DNA from: Cystobasidiomycetes sp. EMM_F5
Lineage: Eukaryota
Length of the DNA: 64,000 bases
Assembly (NCBI GenBank): GCA_051047955.1
Contig: JBPGPT010000004.1
Coordinates: 124,001 to 188,000, forward strand
Direction of reading: 5' to 3'
Of this stretch, positions 18,807 through 45,786 are shown piece by piece. Under the pieces are notes generated by a model. That model had not been told where the DNA came from. It saw only the letters and a program-made list of their open reading frames with translations, and made no database searches. The translations under genes and the position numbers were made by a program. Within the stretch, counting starts at the first letter, position 1, and the number at the start of each line of letters is the position of its first letter.

Positions 18807-19992
18807 TCATCCATACAGCGTCGAAAATGGCATCGACGTTGTAGGCTGCAGCCAGTTCTTGTCGTCATACACTGCATCTCCCTCCTACGGACGATGCACA
18901 CCTCAGTCTCTGTTTACGGACCGCCCCAAAGCGCCCTCTGGTCAACTCACAATCATATGAAACGTATAGATGAAGCGACTCTTGTTGCTCGTATTTCGTT
19001 CGGAGCGATGGATGACAGCACCGTCAATGAGGACCAACGTCCCGGCATCGCACTCCTCCACTTTCCACTGATCGGCATATCGTGGACCATCCCACCGCCT
19101 CGTCTCGCTGTCAATCTCATCCTGCGAAATCATCGGTTCAAATGTGGTAGACCCGTCTTTGCGCACGAACCGCTTGGCGATGGGCCGATTGAGCTTGTGC
19201 GATCCAGGAAGAAACGACAGGCAACCATTGCTCTTTCGACAGTCCTCTAAGGCAAACCAGAATCCGAGTGCACTCGGAGGGTCCGTGTAGAGAAAGGTGG
19301 AATCGTCGTGGCTGGGGACTTTACCTCCTGCATATGGCATCAAGCATGAGCTTACGCGCGCTATTGACATCGCTGAGCTCACCTATTTGCGGCTGCTTGC
19401 AGATCACCATACTCTGCAATACTTTTGGATTGTTGTGGTAGTGCAGTTCTCTGGCGAGCGTCTTCAACCGTTGATTATCCAACGAAAATGCTCTAAACTC
19501 TTCATCGAGCTCATGAAGTGCATGCCCGACTTTGTTTATTGACTGCTCTTTCGGCCGTGTGAGGTTGCCATGCTCATCGAATGCATCCTGCTCAAAGAAG
19601 AAACGAATCTTGTCGCCCGATGTGAGAAAGTAGTCGTCCCCTATGTGATCCTTCTCGCCAGTTGCGAAACGCGTGAGTGGGTGTGATGATAGATCAAAGC
19701 CGGATATCAGGGACTGTGAACGTGATAAGAGGGATTTGGCTGTGGAAGAGGAGAAGAAGTTTGGAATAATGAGATAGCTGTTGAATGAAGGTGAACGAAG
19801 GGGAGTTGTGATTTGTGTGTCAATATCATCAGTACCCCTAACATGTCGCGAAAGAGCCTCGACTGACCCTTGGTCGTAGAACTGCTCTACTTGCTCTGGC
19901 GTAATGACACGCCCGACATCGCTATCGCCTGTGTCGTGCTTGCCATTCAGTACAGTACTGCTGCCATCCGGTGCACCGTTCGACAGCGTCAT
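18807..19992 (-). CDS. PhyH-family Fe(II)/2-oxoglutarate dioxygenase (PHYHD1-like; multi-exon)
   Basis: YFLTSGDKIRFFFE, INKVGHALH, QSMVICKQP, HDD (HxD), NGCLSFLPGSH, VIHRS...SRFIYTFH, last exon YDDKNWLQP...YG*. Confidence 0.92.
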
Positions 19993-20094
19993 CGTTGATT
20001 AGTTGATCAGATCACAAGCAAGTCACGAACGCGCGCTTGATGCTGCTTTCTTGGTGAGTACAACGCGCATCTTTATTGACAAGCCTGCCCAATT

Positions 20095-21986
20095 ATGCCC
20101 GACACTTCACTGCTGCCGGTATGCAATGAGCCCATCACTTGCTATGGCGCAGCTGATGCGCATTGTGCATTTACAACGCAATAAACACACACCGAACCCG
20201 ATGGCACAATCCACTGATGCGTGTACATACCAAATAGGCGTACACTGCCATTGGAATATCCGCACTGTTGCCAATCTACTATGGATCAAAAGCGTACGTA
20301 TTTGTTCCTTGATTTCATGGAAATAACAAGACTGATAATGCTTTAAACCATGGCTACATAGATCGCTCCAGGTATTAGCTGATCAGACTTGCACGAAACG
20401 AAATATTCGTAGACCGGCTTACCAATCAAAACGCTAGATGCCAAAACGCGCAAAGAAGGCAGTGAAAGCGTTGCAGCCTGACAAGGATATCGACGAGTAC
20501 GACAACGTGGACGAGATTGAACGTGTCACTTCAAGAGAGGCATATCTCTTTCCGATACTAGGAAGCTGTACTTTACTAGGTAGGTGAAATATAGCAGATA
20601 CTGGCTTTCGGTATTTACGGATTTTATGGACGCGTAAAATGCGTGTCTAAAATGTTATTAGGCCTCTTTCTGGCGTTTAAATATCTCGATAAGGTGATTG
20701 AAGAAGATATATACTGATATTCTCCGCTAAATTCGCTTGCACCGATATTTTATTTCTCAACAGAATCTGATAAATAAGATTCTTTCTGCATATTTTGCTC
20801 TGATTGGCACGTTTGGCTTGTCACAAGTACATACAACTATATCTCAGCCAGTAACGGTTGCAGAGCATACTAATTTTGTCGGTTGACGTTCGGAACAACC
20901 CCAGATGATCTCATGGATATCCCGACAAATATTCAGCAGGGAGCGATTCTCCTCCGCTGACGAATGGAAGCTTGAACTCACAAAAGGCACAGTCAAGTAC
21001 TTGACCTGCACTTTTTCAAACCTCGACCTTGCCGTTCTCCCTTTTTCAATGGCTTTGACGGGCTTTCAGACATATACCAACAACTGGATCGCATCAAACG
21101 TTCTCGGCCTCGCTCTTGCCTTCAATGGTATTTCCTTCCTCAAACTAGACTCATTTGCAACCGGTGCTATCGTTCTAGCTGGTCTCTTCTTTTACGACAT
21201 CTATTGGGTCTTTTACAGCAGCAAGACTTTTGGCCAATCCGTCATGGCAAGTCGACCCTTTACATATGAATGACAATATTGAAGCTGATGGGTAAGCTGC
21301 TACTAGGTTGCTGTAGCTACAAATTTCGAAGCACCGATAAAGATTGTCTTTCCAAAAGATTTCCTCAAACCCGCTTCCTCTGGCTTTACTATGCTGGGAC
21401 TGGGCGATATCGTCATCCCCGGCATCTTCATTGCGCTCGCACTCAGATTTGACTATAATCGCGCGGTTGATGGGGCGCTTGCAAAGCTCACCACAGGATC
21501 GAGTATCCCAACGCCGAGAGACCGTTTCCCAAAACCGTACTTCCGCGCGGTCCTCGTCAGCTATATTTTGGGTCTGACAACGTGCGTGCCGTTTGTATTT
21601 CAAAGATCATTGATTCTGCTGATATATCTAGACATGCGATGTTCAGGACAATCTACGTCATGCATACGTTCAAAGCAGCACAGCCGGCACTCTTGTATCT
21701 CTCGCCAGCCTGTCTCCTATCAGTGCTTACCGTTGCCCTCTTTCGAGGAGAAGTACGCGCATGTTGGAATTACGTCGATGGCGAAGACGAGCATGACGAG
21801 GTGAAGAAGTCGGAAAATGGAGAGATCGGATCAGACGACGAGAAGAACGGCCCGGACGCTGTGAAAGGAGAACCTGGCAACGAAGGCAACGCGCTCGGCG
21901 AATCTGAAAGTGCTGTGACGGCGGGATCGGAAGAAGCGCGAACAACAAGCAGGAGGCGAAATCCCCATACAGCGGATGCTCCGTAG
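20095..21986 (+). CDS. signal peptide peptidase (GxGD aspartyl intramembrane protease, A22B), copy 1, canonical
   Basis: MPDTSLLP|AYTAIGISALLPIYYGSKA|SLQ; FFYDIYWVF (YD 21193-21198), MLGLGDIVIPG (21397-21408), AQPALLYLSP. Confidence 0.93.
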
Positions 21987-22249
21987 CGGTCACATGCACA
22001 AAGCTCTGTCTCTCCGTGACTGATTGTCACTACAGACGTGAATGTCATACTGATTTACATAACGGTATCCGTTGTACTGATCATTCGATTATGGCAAAGC
22101 GTGCACTACGGCATGTTTGACAGTCAAGATTCAGCTGATCACTGAGGACAATTGCTGGAATGCCCTCACTTCACTCGCCCTGTGACCCCTTCCCGCTCTC
22201 GCTCATCTTGCCCAGCAGACATTCCAAGACCCCCGTCTTCTCGTGCACT

Positions 22250-23838
22250 ATGTACGGTACGATTCTGGTACGTTTTAGCATCGACAACGTATAGAAGGTT
22301 GCTAAAGCCGATGTCAATGCTCATCCAGTCTCTTGCTGCAATGGCTGCTACAGCTGTTTTACCTATATACTACGGTTCTCATGCGTGAATGCTAAAATTC
22401 AGATGGCCGCTCTGCTCGCTTGCGCTGACTTTGCAGAATCCCGTAACTTATTCCAATAAGTTCCCTGGAAGTATGTTCCCTTTGAGCCGTTGAGACAAAG
22501 CAGCGGCTAAGGGTTTGCCTTTTTCTGCTGTCAAGGTGCCGCAAAGCATATGCGAGATGCTACCCGCACCCCATTCTACTCCAACGGCCGTTCCACAGAC
22601 GAAACGCCGAACGCCACGCATCACCTCAACGCAAGCAATGCTGTTTCCGGTGTTTCTGAGTTGCAGCTTGCTAGGTTGGTGCTCCGTTGCGGAGCTTTTG
22701 AATCGCTGCTGAAAGAATCTTGCAGTTGTGTACTACATCTCTGGCCGTCAGGACGCCGACAATGAGGACGGCAGGACGCAGGAGGTACCGCTACATTAAT
22801 GCTTGCAGGTCTTTGAGTATGTATCGGTTGATGGTCTGTAATCCGGCATCAGCAGACTTGGACAGTGTTCATATTGGCGATCGTCTTAAAGATCTATTAC
22901 GCGACACTTGGATTCTTTGCTTTGGCAAATGTACAAACTGTACTCACGGTCCAATTTTATCAGACTGAGTATCCTCTTATTTTTAGGCTGTGGCATACAT
23001 CAAATGGAAGTCAACAAAACAAAACCCGACCTATGCAACTGGTCCAGACAACCCTTTCTCGTGCATTCCTTGTGCGCTCGTTCTCGTTCTACTCTACCTT
23101 TTTACGCAAAATTGGGCCATAGGCAATGTGATGGCCATTTCGGTGTGCTTCTTTCTGCTGTCTACCGCTAGATTGGACTGTTTGGCTACCGGAATCAAGC
23201 TTCTGATCGGGGTTGCGATATACGATCTTTACTGGGTCTTTTGGAGCAGTGCGTTCTTTGGCGACAACGTCATGGTGGGTTGACATTCAGTGAACTGGAC
23301 TTATTTGAATCTGATCGGCCTTCCTGGCCATCCTGTATCTTTAGGATTCAACAATGACCCTGACATCTGTCCAGCTCAATTTAGTCTACCCGCGCGATCT
23401 ATTTCACCCGCTTCAACCCGATACAATTCTGTTGGGCCTTGGCGACATCGCTCTTCCTGGCATGTTCCTCTCCTTCTTACTTCGTTATGATTACTACCAG
23501 GCGTGTCAACGGGCAATAGCAAACTTCGAGACCAAGATCCCGAATCCTAGAGATAGCTTCTTAAAGCTATACTTTCACGCTGGAATCCTTGCATACCTCT
23601 TGGGCTTAGCAGTGTGAGAGAACGCCTGGCAGAACGGATGTACGCTCCAATCTGACCATGTCCATGGCATTGCCCTTAAATTTTCAGCGCCAGTCTCGTA
23701 GTGTATGCTTCTGGTGAAGGCCAGCCAGCGCTGGTGTATTTGGGCCCAGCCTGCGCATTGTCTGCGCTAATCACTGCATTAGCGCGAGGCGAGCTACGTG
23801 CGTTATGGACCTATATAGACGGAGCGGAGGAGTTTTGA
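22250..23838 (+). CDS. signal peptide peptidase paralog, copy 2, diverged but catalytic motifs intact
   Basis: MYGTIL|SLAAMAATAVLPIYYGSHA|SLE; AIYDLYWVF (YD 23221-23226), LLGLGDIALPG (23435-23446), GQPALVYLGP...GELRALWTYIDGAEEF*. Confidence 0.85.
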
Positions 23839-24245
23839 CAATAATACAACAAGCGCGTGATGCCTTCACCAGCCAGATGGTGCAGAATTCTGCCATAGCG
23901 GCAAGGTTGCTTGGTGCTCCACTCGCTGACTGGCTGCGACATGTCGTAAAGATGCTACTTACAGTGTCATGCGAAGCGAGACACGCGTTTTCGATCAACG
24001 GCTCGACAGCAGTGGGCATGTCAGACTGTAAATCACATGTAGGATACTGTCATGCCGTCCATCGCCACTAATTACTGCTGTACAGCCAGCGCTGACTGAG
24101 CAGGGCTACGCATCCGTACAGTCCTACTTCCTCTCTTCTATCTTTCTTCGACTCGTCTCCGGCATCTTCACCTTGGCCTTCCAAACAGCCGGGCTCATTT
24201 GCATGCACATCAGTTTACACAGTCAGCAAGACACACTTCGTCAAG

Positions 24246-26142
24246 ATGGCCTACTTTACGCCAGACAACCCATCTATAGTTATCGATAAAGCTTTCGACG
24301 TCATCGGCACCATTTCGCAGAATAAATTGGCTGTCAGTGAGGTTCAGCATATGACTCGCTCAGTTCTGACGTCAATGCCGCTTACCTTAGCAACATGCCT
24401 TTCTGTCGAGCGTGTCCCTAGTTCCCATCTACTATGGCGCATATGCGTGAGTGCTTGTAAGCCAGATAGAATTGCTGCACCGCCTAGCTGAGCAGCGTCT
24501 TTCTCAGATCTTTACAGGTATGTCGCGCTATCTATACCGCCAGAAGCAGACGCACGCTTCTGAACACCTGTGTATGTGATACTACGGTGCAGCCGAAAGT
24601 ATTATCGCCCAATTCGAGCAAAGCTGGCAAGCCCAGAGGCGCAAAGGTTGCGTTGGCTAGTATAGTACAGCGAGACTTACGGAGCGTACTTCACATCATC
24701 ATCTCTTCCAGTGAGGGCATCCCAGGTCCCTAGCTATATGGGCACTTCTGACTGATAGGCGGTCACAGGAATCGCATATATGATCTATCGTTTTATAGCC
24801 CGATCCGAAAAAGTGGGCGTCCTCTACACCAATACACTACTCGAGCTTACAGAGATGTCTTAGTTAAAGTTCGCAGTATTGCCATTGGTAGTCGCAGGAA
24901 ATGCGAGAGCGGTGGCACGGGTTCGTCAAACGCGCCCGCGGCAGCCCTGATAAGATTACCATGCTGACTTCCCTTCCTCCAGACCATTAGCTACCTGGTG
25001 GAGAAAGTGATGGCTCTGCTTCCACTTGACCTCATTTCACAATGGCAGAAGAAGCTATGTCTAGACGAGATTGGTGAGTAAACAACTTGACACAAAATTG
25101 ACGAGAGTCATCACCAACGTTCTACGATGGTTTACAGCAGATTACCTGCCGACACAGCTCATGAAGCAAGTAAAAATCAACAAGTTGGCGGGTTACGGAA
25201 TGGCAATGTACCTAGCCTGGTCGGGCAGGTTGTCCAGGCGATCCGGCGCGATGTTCAGCATCTGTTTAGGAATGGCTCGCATCTTCACTCGTACAGCTTA
25301 CCCCGTAGTCAGGCGCAATCATACCATCGGACATCTGGTGGAAGCTGGTCAAGACGTTTACCTCGCTAACAGCTCGATTCCTGCATTCGATACTGTCCAA
25401 ACTTTGCAGACTACAGGTGCCGACAGCCAAACGTCAGAAGTGGTTGTAGACACTGTATTGGACGAGATGCGCGGAAATTCCGCTGCTGAGGTGCGCCATG
25501 CGTGTCGCCTGTCTGTTTAATGGACTTACAAATCGATTACAGGGCTCGGTCGGAAACGAGCATCACTCAGCAATAGACGATGAGCTAGAGCAGCTGAACG
25601 CATCAGACGAGGTCTGTCCCGTGGATGGGACTGAAGCCAACGTCACACTTGATCCCATAGGTGACGCGATTGCAGAGTTAAGGGCAGACGCAAGGCGAAT
25701 CTTCGATCTCTGGGTCGACCGCGTAACACGGTCTGCTAGTTGCATGACGAGCGCAGGTGTTCGAGATGCGGTCGTGCCTGGCGCCTTTATCGCCCATGCG
25801 CTCAAGTATGACTACGTCAACGCAGTGAAATCGGCTGCTAAGTCAGATGTAGCAATGTTTCCTGCAATCGAAGACTCCTTTGATACCCCATTCTTCTATG
25901 CTGCTTTCGCAGGCTATGCAGCTGGGCTTGCAGGGTGAGCATAGCTTCCGATGTCTCCAGGACAAGGCTGACAAATCAACAGTTCTTTTGCTGTGCACAG
26001 AACTACGAAGAGACTGCTACCCGCTCTGGCCCTTGTTCCCGCGGCATCACTCGCTACTACGCTTGCTTATGCCGGCTTTCAAGGACAATTAGAGCAATTC
26101 CTGAAGTTTAATGATGCAGAACCCATCGCAATCGAGATCTGA
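24246..26142 (+). CDS. SPP-like paralog, copy 3, predicted catalytically inactive
   Basis: VPIYYGAYA|SLQ with same intron layout as copies 1-2; AGVRDAVVPGAFIAHALKYDY aligns to LGLGDIVIPGIFIALALRFDY; FDTPFFYAAFAGYAAGL; LLPALAL; no YD; internal exon boundaries 24590-25070 uncertain. Confidence 0.72.
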
Positions 26143-26260
26143 GCCGGACAGGAGTACTCAGGAATGCCTTGATGACGATAAGTAATGACAATAAGTAATG
26201 CAAAATTCCGAAATGGCCAGAATGTTTAGCTGTGAAGAGCCATTGACCCTACGAAGTGTT

Positions 26261-26314
26261 GCGTCCAGTGTGATATATACCTATGACGCGTCCAGTGTGA
26301 TATATACCTATGAC
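26261..26314. repeat. perfect 27-bp tandem duplication
   Basis: gcgtccagtgtgatatatacctatgac at 26261-26287 and 26288-26314. Confidence 0.95.
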
Positions 26315-26371
26315 GAGTCGTTCTCTTCGTCTTCGTCTTCGGTCCCGTCTTGACCTTCGCCTTCGCTTTCA

Positions 26372-27574
26372 TCAGACTAAGCTCACGTCAGTTGTAGTAT
26401 CATCATCTGTATCAGAATCGGGGAGCCATACCTCATCTTCCGTAGCTAAATGACCCTCAAACGCTTCATCTATTGCTTTCTGCCAATATTCGAACTCCTC
26501 GACTGATCCTATACTTTCTTCGTCCAGTCTATCCAGTCGCGGACTTTTAACAAGATTAGGCAGCCATAACGGATCTCTGTTTAGGAGCTTGACTATGGCT
26601 GAAGAGGTCGAAGGCAGATTCAAAGGTTGTATACAGATCTCAGTTAGGCTTGGAGGAAGTCGTTGCAACCACCTCGCAGAATGTGTCGTCAGCGGTCTAA
26701 AGTACAGGCGAGACAGTGCTGGTCCGGTACAAGCCAGTATCTGTTCGCATGCAGCAGATCCAATTTCGCTGATTAACATTCCGCTAAGTTTCGGCAGCTT
26801 CGTCGGAAGCCATTCATGAACCCAGGCCTCCTCTTCTTCAGGCTCGGCGTTCGATAGATGAGGATCAATTTGCAACCAATCCAGGGTGTGCGCGCATGGT
26901 TCAAGAAGACATCGGAGTAACCGGGTAGAAGGGAGATCGTACGAGGCGACAATCAATGAGGAGAGATTTGTGAATGGTGCTCGCCATTGACTCCAGGCCA
27001 GATCATTCTGTCTGTCTAAGTGTCTGCAGGTACGTGCCTGGAGGGACAGCCATTGCAATGCTGGCGCAGCGGAAAGAAGAGACTGCAGAAGGGACATTGG
27101 CATGTCGTGCAGATACAGTCCTTGCAGCTGATACATTACTGGAAGGGACCGCGGGATTTTGACTGTGGGCGTCGTGCCTATGCGGGCGTGTGCATCGTCG
27201 AGCCAGAGTTCTTCTAAATGCGGCGTAAATTCGAGCAAGCGAGAGTCCGATAGGTGCTCAAGATAGAGGTTTCGAATGTATGAGCCGAGATAAGGTGCGC
27301 CTCTCAGCCTACGAAGCAAAGGTTGTCCCAGTCCTGCATTGCGTTGCCATTCCGAGGATGTGTCGGAATCGGAATCGGCCTCTGTGCTGCGGAATGTGAT
27401 GTCCGTATACAGGTGACTCACGACCAGCGAATGCCACTTTTTGCACACTTCACTGCAAGCCAGGAGATCGCGCTTAATGTCCAGGTATCGTTGCTTTGTC
27501 TCCCAAATCCCTTCAGATTGCGAAAGATGTTCGAAGATTACAGAGAGGATTTCTGATGGGAGCTGTTGAGCCAT
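26372..27574 (-). CDS. F-box protein with LRR/RNI-like C-terminal region, copy A
   Basis: LPSEILSVIFEHL...LLACSEVCKKWHSLVVSHLY; leucine-periodic repeats; WLPNL motif shared with copy B; single exon. Confidence 0.85.
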   Translation of the reverse strand: MAQQLPSEILSVIFEHLSQSEGIWETKQRYLDIKRDLLACSEVCKKWHSLVVSHLYTDITFRSTEADSDSDTSSEWQRNAGLGQPLLRRLRGAPYLGSYIRNLYLEHLSDSRLLEFTPHLEELWLDDAHARIGTTPTVKIPRSLPVMYQLQGLYLHDMPMSLLQSLLSAAPALQWLSLQARTCRHLDRQNDLAWSQWRAPFTNLSSLIVASYDLPSTRLLRCLLEPCAHTLDWLQIDPHLSNAEPEEEEAWVHEWLPTKLPKLSGMLISEIGSAACEQILACTGPALSRLYFRPLTTHSARWLQRLPPSLTEICIQPLNLPSTSSAIVKLLNRDPLWLPNLVKSPRLDRLDEESIGSVEEFEYWQKAIDEAFEGHLATEDEVWLPDSDTDDDTTTDVSLV

Positions 27575-28013
27575 GGAGGGGCCGGGCCATTTGCTGGCAA
27601 CGAGACTTGTATCACCGTCTGTGCAGCGCCAGCGCGCGGCCACCCTCTGAGAGTAGCTCGTTACCAGTTTGCGATGTTTACAGCGGGAGCTCGTAAAGGG
27701 GGATGTAAATGCGTCAGGCAGGGCAGTTGTGCTTGAAAATCAGCTCGAGTTAGAGCGTCTGCCCGTATTGCATATTCAAGTTTGCATAGTACATTTGCGT
27801 TGTTTGCGGGTAATGGGTTGGGCAGCAAAGGGGGTCTGTGCGAGTCCAGTAACGACCCAGAGCAGCATGTTTGACTTCCGCAGCCCTACTTTGGTGCGAA
27901 CGCCAAATTAACGAAAGAACATGACATGCGCGCAACTGCCTTTTGAACAGGCCGGATGTAACATTTCTCCGCAAATTGCAATGGCTAAAATGAACATCGA
28001 TAGAGTAGTCATC

Positions 28014-29322
28014 CTAGATACCGAGTGCTCTCCTACGCATCCACGCCTGCCCTATCGCATCCTGCCATGTCGCCTGCCCTTCTACGGGCTCATCCTCATC
28101 CATATCTGACACGATATGGGGAATATAGGCCAAATTTGGTAGCCACGCCGGACGAGCATCAAGCAGGTCGACGAGATCGGACGCAGTCTCAGCAAAGTCT
28201 TGCGTAATTAATTGCACATTCCGTAAGGATTCTGGGAGCCGCTTGAGCCATTCCTTCGTCAAACGATCACGCGGAAATAGGGTCGCTCGTAATAGTCCAC
28301 TCGCTGCAAGCGCCATGATCCTTCCGCAGGAGGCTTGTGAGATGTTTCGCAGACGCACAGACTCTAACGAGGCGAATTTCCCTGGCAGCCATCCATCTAG
28401 CCACTTACTTTCCTCATCGTCGTTCGAAATGAGCATAGTTTCATCGATAATCTCAAGTCGCAGATATTCCAAAGAGTCAGAGCATCCATTGACCAGCGAG
28501 AGAAGAGCTTGCTCCGAGGGGACGCCCTCCATCTCGATGATCAGATTCTTGAGCCCTTCGCAAGGCAGTATCCAGTCACTCCAGCGGCCATCGTCGTACA
28601 AGCCTGATAGAAAGATTGTGCAGCTAGTCAGAACATACGACACTGATAAAAGGGCTCTGATAAATTTTGGCGGGACCTGCTCCAGGTGTAATGCCTTGAG
28701 AGCGGGCAGCGTGGGGGGCAACCAGTCGTGCAAGACGCTGCTCATAGGTACAGGATCGCGGTAGTTACCGAAGAATAGTCCTGTTAATCGTGATGTGTAT
28801 GTCAGAAGGCGAAGGCCTTCATAGTGGTCAAAGCTTAGATTTCTGACGAAGTCGCCGTTCTCGGGCGACATCTGTAGGCATCGCAGAAGAGACGATATTT
28901 GCCATGGTATCAGGTCATCTACAGGGTGAATATCGTGAGGGTCGCTGTCGTGCTGAATGCATGAAACACGTGAGCATGCTCTCCGATAACTACTCGATAG
29001 CGCGACGTACTTGATGTTCCTGAGGCATACTGACACTAGAAGAAACGTCCACATCATTCGAACTCCCGTCTGCTGGCAGGCGATCTTGCAACAGCTGAGC
29101 AAGCTCTTGGCGACTGATCGCTCGTATAGGATCGGGATTGATCGGCTCTCTAGCGATGATGTCGCGGTAGAGTTGCGATTTCGCTGCTGACTCCCAGGTT
29201 TTGCAGACATTCACGCATGCTAGCAGGTTCCTTTTAACGCTGATGTATTCGAGGTCGTCGTAATACGGCGTGAGATGCTCGAATATCAGGTAAAGGATGT
29301 CATGAGATAATGCGGACGCCAT
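28014..29322 (-). CDS. F-box protein with LRR/RNI-like C-terminal region, copy B (2 exons)
   Basis: LSHDILYLIFEHL...KRNLLACVNVCKTWESAAKSQLY; one phase-0 intron (gtacgt...ttcag) joins ORF 28990..29322 to ORF 28014..29210; WLKRLPESL, WLPNL. Confidence 0.85.
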
Positions 29323-37465: not shown

Positions 37466-40400
37466 CTAAACACAAGCATGGCTATCCTGCGCCATCCTAC
37501 AATCGCGCGAGCAGAATGTCATGTCGCACTTTTGGCATTTCGGAAAGTTGACACCCTGCTTGCCGCACACGGCACATCGAGACTTGACATTGACCCTGCT
37601 CGCAGCTTCGAGTGCTGCTAGGAGCGGGTCGATGCTCACTGCTTTGGCGTAGTGTCCGTCTTCGCCAGGCTGCGCTGAGTGCTCTTCGTCAGCAAGTGGC
37701 GTGGTGTGACCACTCGTATCGGGAGAACGTGCAGGCGTGTGCGTTGTAGGGTCTAGGAAGGTCCTGTTCTTGTTTCGCCGAGGCCTTCGCTCACGCTTCA
37801 AAGACTTTTTCCGAGTAGACGAAGGACTGGGTGGCGGATTTAAGGGTAGCGTGCTGCCTGAAGATGGCAATTGCAGCTGGGACGATGGGATAGACATGGA
37901 TAACGGCAAGCGTGCTCGGCCCGGCGAAGTCGTATTTCTATCGGGAGAAATGGCATAATCCGATCTTAATGGAGATGGGACGTGCACGGCTTTTGTCTGC
38001 GCTCGACGAGGTGGCGTGAACGTGTTGGCTCCAATCGGTTCAGGCGATTCTTCATGACTTTCCTCGTCCGACGCAGCCCTCCAAAAGTCGAGCTGTTCCT
38101 GTATTTCCGCATGAGCTTCGTCATGTCGCTGCACGATGGCTTTGAGGAGGTCGCGAACGTTGTTGCCGCCGTTGTTGACTGAGTCTGCCTGTTCACGATG
38201 CTCGTCACGATCTACAATACTGCCTTCGGAATGAGTATCATCATCGCTGTCGCCTTCTTCTATTGCATCTGCGTAATCGACACTTTTGCCTTTCGTAGAC
38301 TCTGGTATTAAACCGCTCGTCGGACCAAAGAAGTTGCGCAAGCTTGTATAGCTCTTCTGAAAGCCCAACGACACCAAACTTGCAGAACTGTTGGCTGCAC
38401 GTCTTAGCGGCTGGCCACTCAGTAGAGAATGCGCGAGCGAAGGAGATCGATGATTCAGTCTGGCACTAGAATAGTGTGGAAGTGATGTGACTGATGTGTC
38501 ATTACGACGTAGATACATATAACGATCATCGACAGGCGGAGCCAAAGAATATGCCGCAGGCTCATTGACCATTGTGAGTGGGGTCGAAACGGATCTGACG
38601 GACCAGTAGGCAGAACTTTTGCCTGAGCTCTTGGCAAGTTTTGGTAATCTGGGTACGTGAGCTTGTTTAGGCGGCGGTGATGCCAATTGAGAGGCCCGAT
38701 GAAGGACGACTGGCGCAGAGGCGTGTCTTTGCGGACTGTGTAAGCCATGCTGAGTATCAATGGACAGATACGTAGACGATGTCGGCCGTCGCAACTTCCA
38801 TGGCACCTTCATCGTGACATCTGGTCGTGCAGATGTGGTCGATTGGCCTGCATCGTCAGTGGATCGCGTCGCGGATGCTGCAGAAGAATTGCTGTGAGCG
38901 CGTGAACGTATCGTGGAGACAGGAGAATCCGGAATCGAAAATTTGGCGCTCCGGTGATTTCGGCGCCTCGTGCCAGCAGTCTGCACACCCGGATCAGTAT
39001 CTTGATGATCGGATGTGTGGTCACGATTAGCTGTTGAAGAAATAGATGAGGCATCTGGCCGTCCCTGAGCCTTCTCGCAGGCACTGTCAGCTGCGTGCGA
39101 GACATGCTTGTGTTCTCTATCGTGAGAAGATCTCGATCTTGGCCAGTGCGGCATAGCGGAGACGTGCGGAAAGTACCCATGTTTTCCGTTGTCCCCAGAT
39201 AACGGAGGACTCAGCAGCTCACTTGACCGAATGCGATTCCGCTTGACTGACTTCGCGGCGGTGTGAGCTTGCGTAGCTTCGCCAACCAACGGTGTTCGAA
39301 GGTCATAGGGCGAAGCGGGCGGAACGGACTGAGTCTCTAGCATGTCGAGCCTGATCTTGGCTTTGGCAATGATGTCTTCTGCTTCTCTCAAAGCAGAGTT
39401 GCTGCCACTTCCGCCACCCGCACCAGTCTTTGTCTTCGGGCTTTGTGCCCCACTCCCAAGAGCTCCATCTCTGCCAGTCTCTCCTAGTGCGCATATAGTC
39501 TCCCAATATGTCCGTGCTTCGTCGATGTGAGAGTGAGAAAAAGATACAAGGGCAGCAATGTAGTACAAGTAGATCAACACGGCGCGAGCTTGTCGGGCGG
39601 AACTGGCATTCAATGAAGACTTGGATAATTTGGGCGGAAGCTTGGAGAAGGATACGGATTTCTTCATTGCGGCTCGTTGTTGACCATTGGGCATGTTTGG
39701 CGATGGCGAAACAGCATGACTGGTCGGGCTGTAGGTGGGTGGCAACATCGTATGCGCTTCTGTATGAATACCAAGGAGATACTCAATCTTGAAGGCAAGC
39801 GGTTTAGCTATTGCTGCACCTGCATTCCAGATGTCTGAGTGTTTGTCTTCGGCCTTTGATGGTAGAGAAGACGTCAGGATTGGCGAGAGAAGGGGAGCAT
39901 GTCCGTTGGAATGACGGGTCGTGACGTCGTGGGTATCATGTAGACGCTGCTTGCCTTTGGCCATGTGATGTGAGAGTGTGCCAATGATGCCATTCAATGT
40001 TCTGCTATCCTTTCCTCCCGGAGCCTGAATCTTTCCATGCCGATACAAATCGCACAGGCTGCTGCTCAGGTCGAGGATCAGTTCAATGTTGAGCGATGTG
40101 ACGCCGTTGATTGATCCAAGACTGGTATCCATTGACGTGTTTCCCGAATCCGAGTCGAGTGCTTCGCATCGCTTATTCTCGAGCTCTAGACCCATGACCA
40201 AATACTTTGCTGCTTCGAGCGTATCTGCGGGCATACGTTGTCTCCCGTGAGTCTTGTCGTGGTTTGAGTCTTTGCACGATAGGCCTTTTGCGAGTAGACT
40301 GGTCAATGCGTGTAGGTGAGTGGCAGGCAAGCCTAACGACGGCAATGCGCTCACTTTGCTAGTGAAAGGCATGCTGCCGGACTACCGCATCTGACTGCTT

Positions 40401-42529: not shown

Positions 42530-45151
42530 TCAAGAAAAAAGATCTGCCAGAGGTTTGCGCGAAGGTGATGGAGATGCTCTTCGTGGACTTCGAGGCGGGA
42601 TATGCGGCAGTGGCTCGCCCGTTAACCAGGGAGAATCTGGTTCATCGAAATCACCTCCACCTCCTCTCGAGGCTGAAGGCACTTGCAGTTGACTTCGTCG
42701 CACCCTTCTCGCTCTGTCCCTCTCTGACGAAGCGCCGATGACCGTCTGTACTTGTTGTAATTTGCGGAATTCTCCGAACTCTGTGTGTCGCGAGACGCAT
42801 GAGAAGGTGATCTACCGCTCGAACTACCGTCCGACCGCTCCTTCTTTCGTATCGAGAGGGGTGCCACACTACGTTTGCTGTTTGATCGGCTGGAAGTGGT
42901 ATTGCTTGCGCTGTCCGAGTGTGATGATCGCGATTTCGACCGGGACCGAGTTCGTGCGGTATGTATGCCATCACTGACAGAAGCTGCTGCTTCCATGATG
43001 GACATTGAAGATAGACCCGTCATTCTGCTGATTGGTCTAGCAGCACCTGTCAGCCTCTGTGGGTATTGCAGTCGGATATATCATTGCTGTACTTACTTGC
43101 TTAAGGAAGCCTTGTTCCAGCGCTTGGGTTCACCAGATTTTCGAGCTGCCGTCGCAGGAGCAGTCACGGTGGATTCGCTCTCACCACGACTACCTGGTGA
43201 TCCAACTGGCGCAAGGAAACTACGGCTTTCCTCATTGTCGTCGCCTTCGTCGTCGCTGAATAACATCATCGGTCCATACGATTGTTGGGATCCGCCAACT
43301 ACAGAGCTTGATGGTTGTGACCTATGTACGACAAAGTCCCATCAGCAAGGTGATTAAAGGAGGTCTGTTCTTATGGTGTACTCACGCTTGTCCAGTATAT
43401 GATCCCTCTCCACGCTCTTCGTCAGGCGGCTGCGTGGGGACATTGAACAAAGGGATCTGCAGACGCCTTCGTAGTCTTTCCGTCCTAGATTCGTTTGAAT
43501 GCGTCTCTTCATCGATAGATGCGTTGTCATCGCTGAGGCGGCTGGAAGCGGATACAAACGATTGATGCCGCGAACGCCGTCCAGGTCGACCACTCGAGAC
43601 CACTGCGCTAGGGCTATCTACATGCCCGACACCGGTCTCGTCACTGTCTGGTCCCAAGATGCTCGCCGCGCTCTGCGACGGCACTCGAGAAGGCGTCCGT
43701 TTCGGTGACGAGAAAAACTTTCCAAAACCTAATGAGCCGCTCGATTGACCAGACCCTGAACCAGAACCCGCTCTTTTGGTCGCAGACGGGGAAGAAAGGG
43801 TGCCATCGGTCGGCCCAAAATCCGACGGACGGCCGAGTCCAACCAATGGGTTGTTCAAGGGAATCGTACGGCGATCCGATGGTACCGAAGGCGGTGGACT
43901 GTAAAACAAGTTCTCCCCGGTTGGAACGGCAGACTGTGAGCTATTCCCTCCGCCGCTCCTGCTTCCGTTTCCACTGCCTCCGGCGCCTGGTCCTGGTCCC
44001 GAAGGTCCGCCAGGCCCACCGCTGCTTCCACCGCTGCCGTTGTCTCCATCTTCTGGCGGTTTGCGACCGTGTTGGAATCCGGCAAAATGACTTGCTCGTG
44101 TGCTAGTCGAACCTGATTGCGCAGTAGATTGATGGGTAGACGCGCTGACATGCCGATTGTCCGCAGTGACGGCAGCCAAAGCGGCTCCTGGTGTGTGTAT
44201 TCTGGAGGTACCACTTGGTCCTGCGATCGCAGAGACTGGCATACCTGCCTCGTCATCGCGGTAGCTCATCAAATTTTCCATTTCGCCAAACTGATCGTGG
44301 TGCGCCCCTGCTTGAGAGGTACTTGCCGTCCTGTGAGCAGGCACAAATTCTGTACCACCAGAGCGATATGGTGCCGAAGATGCTCCGCCTGCACCTGGAT
44401 CATCGGGACCGCTATTTGCAAGGCGTGCGCCTTTACGACGGCGCAAGAGACAAGCTGCAAGGAGCAGACCTATCAAACACAATAGGGCAAATGTGCCTAT
44501 AGTGATGGCTGCAATGAAGCCCGTCGACAAAGACGAGCCTCTCGCTGATATGCTGGGCAAGGCAGCCAGGCTTGTCGATGTCGATGAAAGAGTTGTAGTA
44601 CTGGAATCATCGATGTCTGAAGGTGTAGTTGTAGAACTGCTCGGACGTGATGTCGCAGAGCTACGTGAGGAAGATGCTGCTCCTGTGGAACTTGCAAGGC
44701 TATTACTCGTTCTGGATGGGCTGGCTGACGCGGCTGTGCTTGCCGTATTACGGGAGGGTGACCCAGAGCGAGAAGATGAAGTGTCAACTGCTGCGGACGC
44801 TCGAGAGCGACTGGAAGCAACCATTGTGGCCGAAGACCCATTCGAGGTGGAAGCGGCAATTACTGGAGGCATGCTGGATTGTATGTTCGACATACGAGGC
44901 CCGGACGTGACTGCAGAGATTGACGGTGCGATGGTCGCAGTGCCTCCGATCCTGGTTAAGCCAGTAGGTCCTCCTACGATGGATACATATGTGCCAATAT
45001 CAGGATTTGCACCCGCGTTGACCCAAGGCCACGTCAAGCCGGGTATGCTGGCCCCAGAATAGGTTTGCGGGAACGCAAGCGTGACTATAGTGTAGACGTT
45101 TGGCGCAAGCTGTATTGTGGTTCTTGACATCCATGATGGAAGAGCTGCCAT
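42530..45151 (-). CDS. single-pass membrane protein with Ser/Thr-rich ectodomain (Mid2/mucin-like architecture)
   Basis: Ser/Thr-rich tract, TM helix GFIAAITIGTFALLCLIGLLLAACLL followed by RRRK, long low-complexity tail; 3' exon model uncertain (alternative stop at 42622). Confidence 0.72.
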
Positions 45152-45786
45152 TGGAGTTTCGGCGTAGATGGGTGGCAGCCGGCAGCAAGTCAGCAAAGCA
45201 CAATGCGTCGATATTTTTTAACGCAACTTACGCTGAACAGGTTGACCATCCATGGACATGCGTGAAAGTCGGTAAAAGTTCGTAAAGCGTCGTCGTTAAG
45301 AGCCGTAGTCCGAACGTCGGATCCGTAAAGTCGTTCAGGCTGTGCTGCTTGTCTCAAATCCTCGTTTCCCCATTCCTCAGCAGTGACATAGATGCATATG
45401 TATCGCAGAGTGTCGTTGGGTATGTGAGACTCCGCTTGCGTATCATGCGGACTTTATGCTATCCGCCCGAAGCCAGAGCTCAGTCCACGGCCACCAGACG
45501 AGCAGGGTCGCAGCAGTCTAGCCAGCTATGACTTCGATTGTGCCGGCCTTGACGCAGTAACAGATTGAGGCTGCACCAAGCCAGTGCGACCAGCACAACA
45601 ATCACGACATCGTCCAGCAATCGCGTAGTCACGCGAGGGTGATCAGAGACATCGTGGATCGTTGTAACGGTTTTAATCAGAATTTGCAGCATTGCTTGAC
45701 AACCAACCGTGTCGCGACTGCGCATGGCGATGACCGTGCATGGGGCCGTCGAGTCGTAGAATGGCAGCATCGAGGCTTGCGGTCGC

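Follow-up and report, generated by a model that had tools for sequence, protein, structure and literature searches.

The window analyzed here, a 64,000-nucleotide stretch of contig JBPGPT010000004.1 from Cystobasidiomycetes sp. EMM_F5, contains at positions 20095–26142 of its forward strand three co-oriented, intron-rich genes of the signal peptide peptidase (SPP) family (Pfam PF04258, Peptidase_A22B), hereafter referred to as copies 1, 2 and 3. The explanation that I favor, with a probability of about 60%, is that an intron-rich SPP gene underwent two ancient tandem duplications, leaving copy 1 as the housekeeping enzyme, copy 2 as an altered protease and copy 3 as a pseudo-protease. An earlier note on this DNA had reported three co-oriented SPP-like genes at this place, and translation, Pfam scores and gene models confirm them. 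The same note had ordered them as a canonical protease (copy 1), a diverged copy that keeps YD and GLGD (copy 2) and a catalytically disabled copy, a series that is borne out by the motifs, the extent of the hidden Markov model (HMM) alignments and the retention of conserved columns. The triplet is solid as an observation, and is moderately interesting through its conserved dead copy.

At 100% identity, the exon translations match proteins deposited at NCBI for Cystobasidiomycetes sp. EMM_F5, and the GC content of the window (∼51%) and its short GT-AG introns are fungal. The isolate, a yeast from leaf surfaces, has no sequenced sister taxon according to the genome announcement (PMC12697161).

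Gene structure and shared ancestry of the three copies

Splice models were built by hand from three-frame translations and sequence rulers; all introns are GT-AG, with lengths of 48–170 nucleotides (nt). Copy 1 (20095–21986) is a canonical SPP gene with nine exons (20095–20118, 20238–20293, 20362–20371, 20438–20579, 20662–20693, 20764–20826, 20905–21240, 21307–21581 and 21632–21986), encoding 430 amino acids. Its exon 7/8 boundary has two equally good solutions, of which NCBI takes the one at 21250/21317. The features that define an A22B/SPP protease are all found in it: a PF04258 score of 252.7 bits for the NCBI model P0012 (gathering score 23.3 bits; single exons reach 79.9 and 67.3 bits), YD (the first catalytic Asp, 21193–21198) and GLGD (21397–21408) on adjacent helices, a C-terminal PAL (21684–21692), and about nine hydrophobic segments, as counted by a crude Kyte-Doolittle scan. 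The motifs were read from the translation and checked against human SPPL2a (PDB 9k92), to which copy 1 aligns over helices 5–9 with YD, GxGD and PAL in register (E 2.3e-15).

Copy 2 (22311–23838) is a fast-evolving SPP paralog with intact motifs, whose eight exons (22311–22384, 22461–22470, 22536–22674, 22726–22784, 22853–22930, 22987–23274, 23345–23613 and 23688–23838) encode 355 amino acids. Taken exon by exon, it scores 55.5, 43.2 and 36.5 bits against PF04258, and against an HMM built from seven canonical SPP sequences (hereafter the canonical HMM) it scores 168.8 bits and aligns end to end (positions 5–292). Translation and HMM alignment locate YD at 23221–23226, GLGD at 23435–23446 and PAL at 23725–23733; with about nine hydrophobic segments, this copy too has the full set of A22B/SPP features. 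Of the 34 invariant canonical columns it retains 22, and of the 127 variable ones 46 (Fisher p 0.0027), which points to constraint on this copy. Two elements are missing, namely the long C-terminal tail and the conserved VA..APIK stretch between helices 6 and 7, where the invariant V, A, P and K are replaced by T, M, Q and N. A start for copy 2 at 22250 was considered and rejected, since introns of 27–38 nt would be needed.

Copy 3 (24246–26142) is an SPP-derived gene lacking the YD aspartate, with nine exons (24246–24341, 24391–24446, 24508–24517, 24593–24710, 24769–24812, 24983–25073, 25138–25490, 25543–25934 and 25983–26142) and a product of 439 amino acids. Its first exon ends at 24341 in the hand-built model and at 24332 in the NCBI model.

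Three intron positions are of identical phase in all copies, and further ones are common to copies 1 and 3 (one position) or to copies 1 and 2 (three positions). Every copy has a phase-2 intron after PIYYGxx, followed by a 10-nt micro-exon (20362–20371 in copy 1, 22461–22470 in copy 2 and 24508–24517 in copy 3) and then a phase-0 intron; a phase-2 intron directly before the PAL helix is likewise present in all three. Together with the preceding split codon, the micro-exon encodes ASLQ in copy 1, ASLE in copy 2 and ASLQ in copy 3, and the NCBI model of copy 3 also contains YASLQ. These shared positions and phases, micro-exon included, indicate a duplication at the DNA level of one intron-bearing ancestor. 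Micro-exons of 10 nt conserved across three old paralogs also make a hard case for gene finders.

The copies are strongly diverged. Identical residues number 128 of 339 between copies 1 and 2, 93 of 350 between copies 1 and 3, and 75 of 327 between copies 2 and 3, the middle of copy 3 not being reliably alignable. At the nucleotide level, blastn between the three loci detected a single similarity, of 71% across 55 nt in the YD region (E 0.01), which leaves no room for a recent duplication or gene conversion. A metagenome scan with P0012 matched 368 stretches, of which seven were confirmed, all of them canonical SPPs at 29–52% identity. All seven match copy 1 better than copy 2; six are also hit by copy 3 and match copy 2 better than copy 3, and the seventh, L007, gave no copy 3 hit at E ≤ 1e-3. 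Only one confirmed metagenome locus, L006, has flanks, and no second SPP copy was found on it.

A tree was computed from 12 rows and 301 of 564 columns, with P0002, P0004 and P0006 left out and the stops of L006 and L007 read as gaps. Copy 3 is joined at 100/100 with P0009, a protein of the same type that is described below; the stem of this pair measures 2.6 changes per column. The end branches measure 0.29 for copy 1 and 1.72 for copy 2, which corresponds to a roughly sixfold higher rate of evolution in copy 2.

Several claims of the earlier note can be judged on these data. The sharing of PIYYG, (R/K)(F/Y)DY, PAL and early intron positions holds for all three copies, from their translations and the comparison of introns. 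The graded divergence is real, as seen in the pairwise identities, the ranking of the metagenome loci and the extent of the HMM alignments; so is an old local expansion, given the shared intron positions and micro-exon and a DNA similarity limited to 55 nt. The module that the note proposed, in which the three would work together or bind, is a conjecture. As for the spacers, which had been put at about 260 and about 410 base pairs (bp), the second stands (407 bp between the models of copies 2 and 3) and the first does not, the distance between copies 1 and 2 being 324 bp; a value of 260 would need the ATG at 22250.

One of the seven metagenome loci is unusual in its own right. L007:2173–3024, on a contig of 29% GC, carries an SPP-like frame in which eight TAA and three TAG codons occur and TGA is absent, a pattern resembling a ciliate-type genetic code rather than a pseudogene.

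The public gene models at the locus (KAL7009034.1, or P0012, and KAL7009035.1, or P0007) are wrong, one being truncated and the other chimeric. The first, EMMF5_001231, is copy 1 minus its three 5′ exons, the PIYYG exon included, and starts at 20438. The second, EMMF5_001232 (504 amino acids), fuses the copy 2 exon at 23354–23614 to copy 3 and skips the PAL exon and stop of copy 2, whose remaining exons are unannotated publicly. Taken at face value, this model, which runs from 23354 through copy 3, would make copies 2 and 3 a single gene. I consider this hardly credible: the dropped PAL exon ends with a stop (23836–23838) after a C-terminus, RGELRALWTYIDGAEEF, that parallels that of copy 1; six 5′ exons of copy 2 are omitted, the YD exon among them; the spacer upstream of copy 3's own ATG and PIYYG exon is translated; helices 7–8 would occur twice in one protein; and the underlying annotation is ab initio.

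A further public entry, P0005 (NCBI KAJ9102053.1, Naganishia cerealis, 412 amino acids), starts inside SPP, without helices 1–2, and after the PAL helix goes on into a hydrophobic C-terminal part that is unrelated to it. Here too, a merged or truncated gene model of a fungal SPP is the probable cause.

Catalytic and structural features of copy 3

The similarity of copy 3 to the family is confined to its C-terminal half. Its open reading frame (ORF) at 25450–25938 scores 22.1 bits against PF04258, just below the cut-off of 23.3, and against the canonical HMM the copy reaches 58.3 bits in an alignment limited to positions 190–294, which begins at GxGD and extends through the C-terminus. Aligned to the family with hhalign, it obtains a probability of 98.3 over 119 columns, corresponding to helices 7–9 only. 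Its relatives P0009 and P0002 pass the PF04258 threshold at 30.1 and 35.5 bits, again over profile positions 199–285 only.

By translation and alignment, the middle regions of copy 3 and P0009 both lack YD. In place of GLGD, copy 3 has GVRD (25756–25767): the HMM alignment puts GvrD on GLGD, so that the Asp survives, and the neighboring Gly is replaced by Arg both in copy 3 (GVRD) and in the relative (KMRD), which breaks the GxGD pattern. The claim that copy 3 has lost the catalytic signature is thus correct for YD and for the Gly beside the second Asp, and incorrect for the GxGD Asp itself. With no first catalytic Asp and an Arg beside the second, copy 3 is in all likelihood not a GxGD protease. 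Both Asp residues are described as required in presenilin, SPP and an archaeal homolog, and a Gly-to-Ala change next to the second Asp as already slowing catalysis (PMC2947513).

What remains is the end of helix 1 (PIYYG-ASLQ), helices 7–9, the KYDY cap and PAL (26020–26028), which reads LPALALVPAAS in copy 3 and APALALIPAAS in the relative. The hydropathy profile shows helices 1–3, a weak GMARIFT helix, a weak helix 7, and helices 8 and 9, for a total of ∼7 weak segments. Between helices 3 and 7, moderate hydrophobicity is seen in one segment only, GMARIFT (25269–25289), which is also the only conserved helix of the middle region. It is found in the relative as GMARIFTK, and lines up with canonical helix 4 (by MAFFT) or helix 6 (by eye). 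I infer that a reduction of helices 4–6 to one helix would preserve the orientation of helices 7–9. The stretch separating GMARIFT from GVRD is 131 residues long and includes 24 Asp/Glu and 8 Lys/Arg.

These features allow a different proposal, in which copy 3 is still a protease, using the GVRD Asp with some other acidic residue or forming half of a composite site with copy 1 or 2. The GxGD Asp, PAL and helices 7–9 are indeed kept in both lineages, and the loop is rich in Asp and Glu, acidic residues outnumbering basic ones by 24 to 8 over its 131 positions. However, the two Asp residues are needed on adjacent helices and the Gly-to-Ala change alone slows catalysis, as reported in the source cited above; that Gly is Arg in both copy 3 lineages, and the GMARIFT helix shows no acidic partner embedded in the membrane. 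I regard retained proteolysis by copy 3 as very improbable.

Structure prediction adds little for the N-terminal part. The AlphaFold 2 (AF2) model of the copy 3 part of the NCBI protein (from 15 rows) has a mean predicted local distance difference test score (pLDDT) of 55.3 and a predicted template modeling score (pTM) of 0.38, and is confident only for residues ∼270–370, that is helices 7–9. A Foldseek search of the PDB with this weak model yielded no match at E ≤ 0.001, with 9k92 at rank 39 (root-mean-square deviation 3.3 over 98 columns), an outcome taken as uninformative, and a profile search of the PDB with copy 3 and its relatives found no chain at E ≤ 1.

Taken as a pseudo-protease, as favored here, copy 3 combines an Arg-Asp pair, a PAL helix and an acidic loop, which suggests that a helix-binding scaffold has been retained and taken on a new role.

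Probable constraint on copy 3

Coding potential was measured as codon-use log-odds against nine long ORFs of the window (training range 0.114–0.258 bits/codon). The in-frame values are 0.182, 0.118 and 0.181 bits/codon for copies 1, 2 and 3, and the whole-copy scores are negative for all other frames, introns and spacers. Among exons of at least 60 nt, those scoring best in frame are 5 of 5 in copy 1, 4 of 6 in copy 2 and 6 of 6 in copy 3. Copy 3 moreover retains 12 of 19 invariant canonical columns, against 21 of 64 variable ones (p 0.018).

Searching 1,835,955,588 representative sequences by HMMER with the copy 3 exon 25543–25932 gave six hits at E ≤ 0.001, namely the window's own ORF, P0002, three canonical SPPs or fragments of these, and one repeat protein that was taken as noise. 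P0002 is a copy-3-type protein from one other lineage, with 47% identity to the window. P0009, from the same cluster, consists of one open ORF of 283 amino acids that extends from the GMARIFT helix through the C-terminus and shares the derived states of copy 3: it is YD-less, has RD for GD, and carries AV(I/V)PGAFI(S/A)HALKYDY and PALAL(I/V)PAAS. Identities between copy 3 and P0009 are 23 of 36 in helix 7, 10 of 15 in helix 8 and 23 of 45 in helix 9, against 21 of 87 in the loop. P0009 and P0002 themselves differ at 13 of 166 residues; the differences are mostly conservative and spare the helix 7 motif, RDAVIPGAFISHALKYDY. The two relatives also bear on the gene model, as they support the frame of the last three copy 3 exons as well as the acceptor at 25983, carrying SFI(L/F)N(R/K), six residues, exactly at the gap of the NCBI model.

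Other searches contributed less. A word-index search for longer proteins with the copy 3 ORF gave no match, the 90% cluster being represented by a 146-amino-acid ORF outside the length range. A metagenome scan with profile A2 matched 254 stretches, none of which was confirmed, and a search of the ESM Atlas with P0009 was uninformative, its best score (0.75) being to a viral cluster.

A number of observations weigh against the scenario of two ancient duplications ending in a conserved pseudo-protease. The splice models were built by hand from the sequence, and the public annotation comes from funannotate ab initio gene prediction, with no RNA data mentioned in the genome announcement (PMC12697161). 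The first donor of copy 3 is weak (GTTCAG; NCBI uses GTCAGT), one of its introns is 170 nt long, and the NCBI model P0007 skips its exons 4–5 (24593–24710 and 24769–24812), although these sum to 162 nt, leaving the frame intact with or without them. Two copy 2 exons (22536–22674 and 22853–22930) score better out of frame, and a word-index search with one copy 2 exon matched no ortholog. In the AF2 model, 197 of 376 copy 3 residues have a pLDDT below 50 and the first 234 residues are not folded. The tree supports copies 1 and 2 as sisters at only 51/83. Finally, a profile search of a 5.8-billion set, with 8000 candidates scored, recovered copy-3-type proteins in only two 90% clusters, from which the family appears real but very narrow.

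Part of this could be read to mean that copy 3, possibly together with copy 2, is a duplicate that is dying or already dead, an untranscribed or functionless relic with an open frame rescued by the choice of splice sites. Besides the weak donor, the 170-nt intron and the two out-of-frame exons of copy 2, such a reading can call on the score of the copy 3 exon ORF below the Pfam threshold, on the middle 250 residues to which the family HMM fails to align, and on the lost hydrophobicity of helices 4–7. It has more difficulty with the stop-free exons of 353 and 392 nt, which lie in frames fixed by homology and not chosen, and with codon statistics that equal those of copy 1, all six scored exons being best in frame; all eight introns of copy 3 are GT-AG. 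A relative at 39–47% identity keeps an uninterrupted 283-amino-acid ORF with the same derived residues, and the identity between the two is concentrated in the helices. I therefore think it improbable that copy 3 is on its way out. It does not look like a decayed pseudogene, and the label of pseudo-protease gains support from the conserved relative in one other lineage, outside support of this kind being limited to copy 3. Its retention in another lineage makes a separate, non-cutting function for copy 3 probable.

Proposed roles, known systems and neighborhood

In the preferred scenario, an ancestral intron-rich SPP gene would have been duplicated twice in tandem, long ago, in the cystobasidiomycete lineage. 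Copy 1, judging from its motifs, would be the housekeeping intramembrane aspartyl protease of the endoplasmic reticulum (ER), belonging to the YD/GxGD class that removes signal peptides as well as membrane proteins of the type II or tail-anchored kind. Copy 2 most likely remains active as a protease, though its substrates or location may have changed, as the VA..APIK stretch, a predicted substrate contact, is altered. Copy 3 would be a conserved non-catalytic membrane protein, which may hold or gate membrane clients, possibly for the neighboring copies, by analogy with iRhoms and Derlins.

Fungal SPPs such as Aspergillus SppA, Saccharomyces cerevisiae Ypf1 and Phaffia rhodozyma SppA are of the same kind as copy 1 and, in layout, copy 2, with PF04258, YD/GLGD/PAL and about nine helices; the likeness is to these enzymes as described and not to their sequences. 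In Aspergillus, SppA is presented as an intramembrane aspartyl protease of the ER on which SrbA activation depends, and one SPP homolog is characterised in P. rhodozyma (PMC13026331). These fungi are described with a single SPP gene, whereas here three occur in tandem, one of them without the catalytic dyad. The statement that fungi generally have one SPP, from which the earlier note had started, agrees with the reports for A. niger, where A22B is given as a single member (PMC7804941), and for the Tremellales, where it is given as single copy in all strains studied (PMC7147457). No description of an SPP array from fungi or Basidiomycota was found in the open-access literature. Expansion by duplication is otherwise normal in the SPP/SPPL families of animals and plants, and a tandem SPP pair is reported in rapeseed (PMC11012144). 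SPPL paralogs are active proteases at other locations, unlike copy 3.

Presenilins belong to the same clan and have the same motifs as SPP. In them, too, the GxGD helix is preceded by a long hydrophilic loop; they keep both Asp residues and need partner subunits, whereas the acidic loop of copy 3 follows a degenerate middle region. No homology of copy 3 to presenilin was detected in the PDB profile search (E ≤ 1).

A parallel in kind is offered by the iRhoms and Derlins, which are likewise conserved paralogs of an intramembrane protease with lost catalytic residues. They bind transmembrane clients or work in ER quality control, and these non-cutting rhomboid relatives are major regulators of membrane protein fate. 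Their fold and family, however, are unrelated to those of SPP. Client binding or regulation by copy 3 is proposed by analogy only, and the conservation of copy 3 is shown in one other lineage and not across kingdoms. Derlin-1 is reported to act in a complex with SPP (PMC7366577). In the open-access literature searched, no catalytically dead member of the GxGD family was found, and the term pseudoprotease was used only for rhomboid relatives.

I also put forward a more specific proposal, which is tentative and for now rather unlikely: copy 3 and its relative might be the first members of a pseudo-protease branch of the presenilin/SPP superfamily. Such a protein would have seven helices, keep the substrate-docking half of the fold (helices 7–9 and PAL), have the former active site filled by the conserved Arg-Asp pair and carry a long acidic loop, and would act as a partner of the active copies in ER membrane protein quality control, as a client holder or gate in the manner of iRhoms and Derlins. 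An SPP paralog that is naturally disabled but conserved, with two intact copies next to it in a non-pathogenic yeast that can be cultured, would make a simple system, which could show what the non-catalytic part of the fold does and whether such proteins regulate their active paralogs.

No fourth SPP copy was found in the whole 64-kb window by tblastn with the three products as queries. On the 5′ side, the triplet is preceded by a divergent gene for a PhyH-type dioxygenase (18942–19998, reverse strand), and on the 3′ side an F-box protein gene (26372–27739, reverse strand) is the convergent neighbor of copy 3. Genes for a SEN1 helicase, Tsr1, homocitrate synthase and an eRF1-like protein lie farther away, and a survey of the genes in the window revealed no functional link between the flanking genes and the triplet. 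Three long open frames on the reverse strand of the window, at 37466–40381 (971 amino acids), 43382–45217 (611 amino acids) and 28014–29210 (398 amino acids), have no Pfam match at E ≤ 0.001. The spacer between copy 3 and the F-box gene contains two short tandem repeats, one of 13 nt at 26172–26200 (2.2 copies) and one of 27 nt at 26261–26319 (2.2 copies, 96% match).

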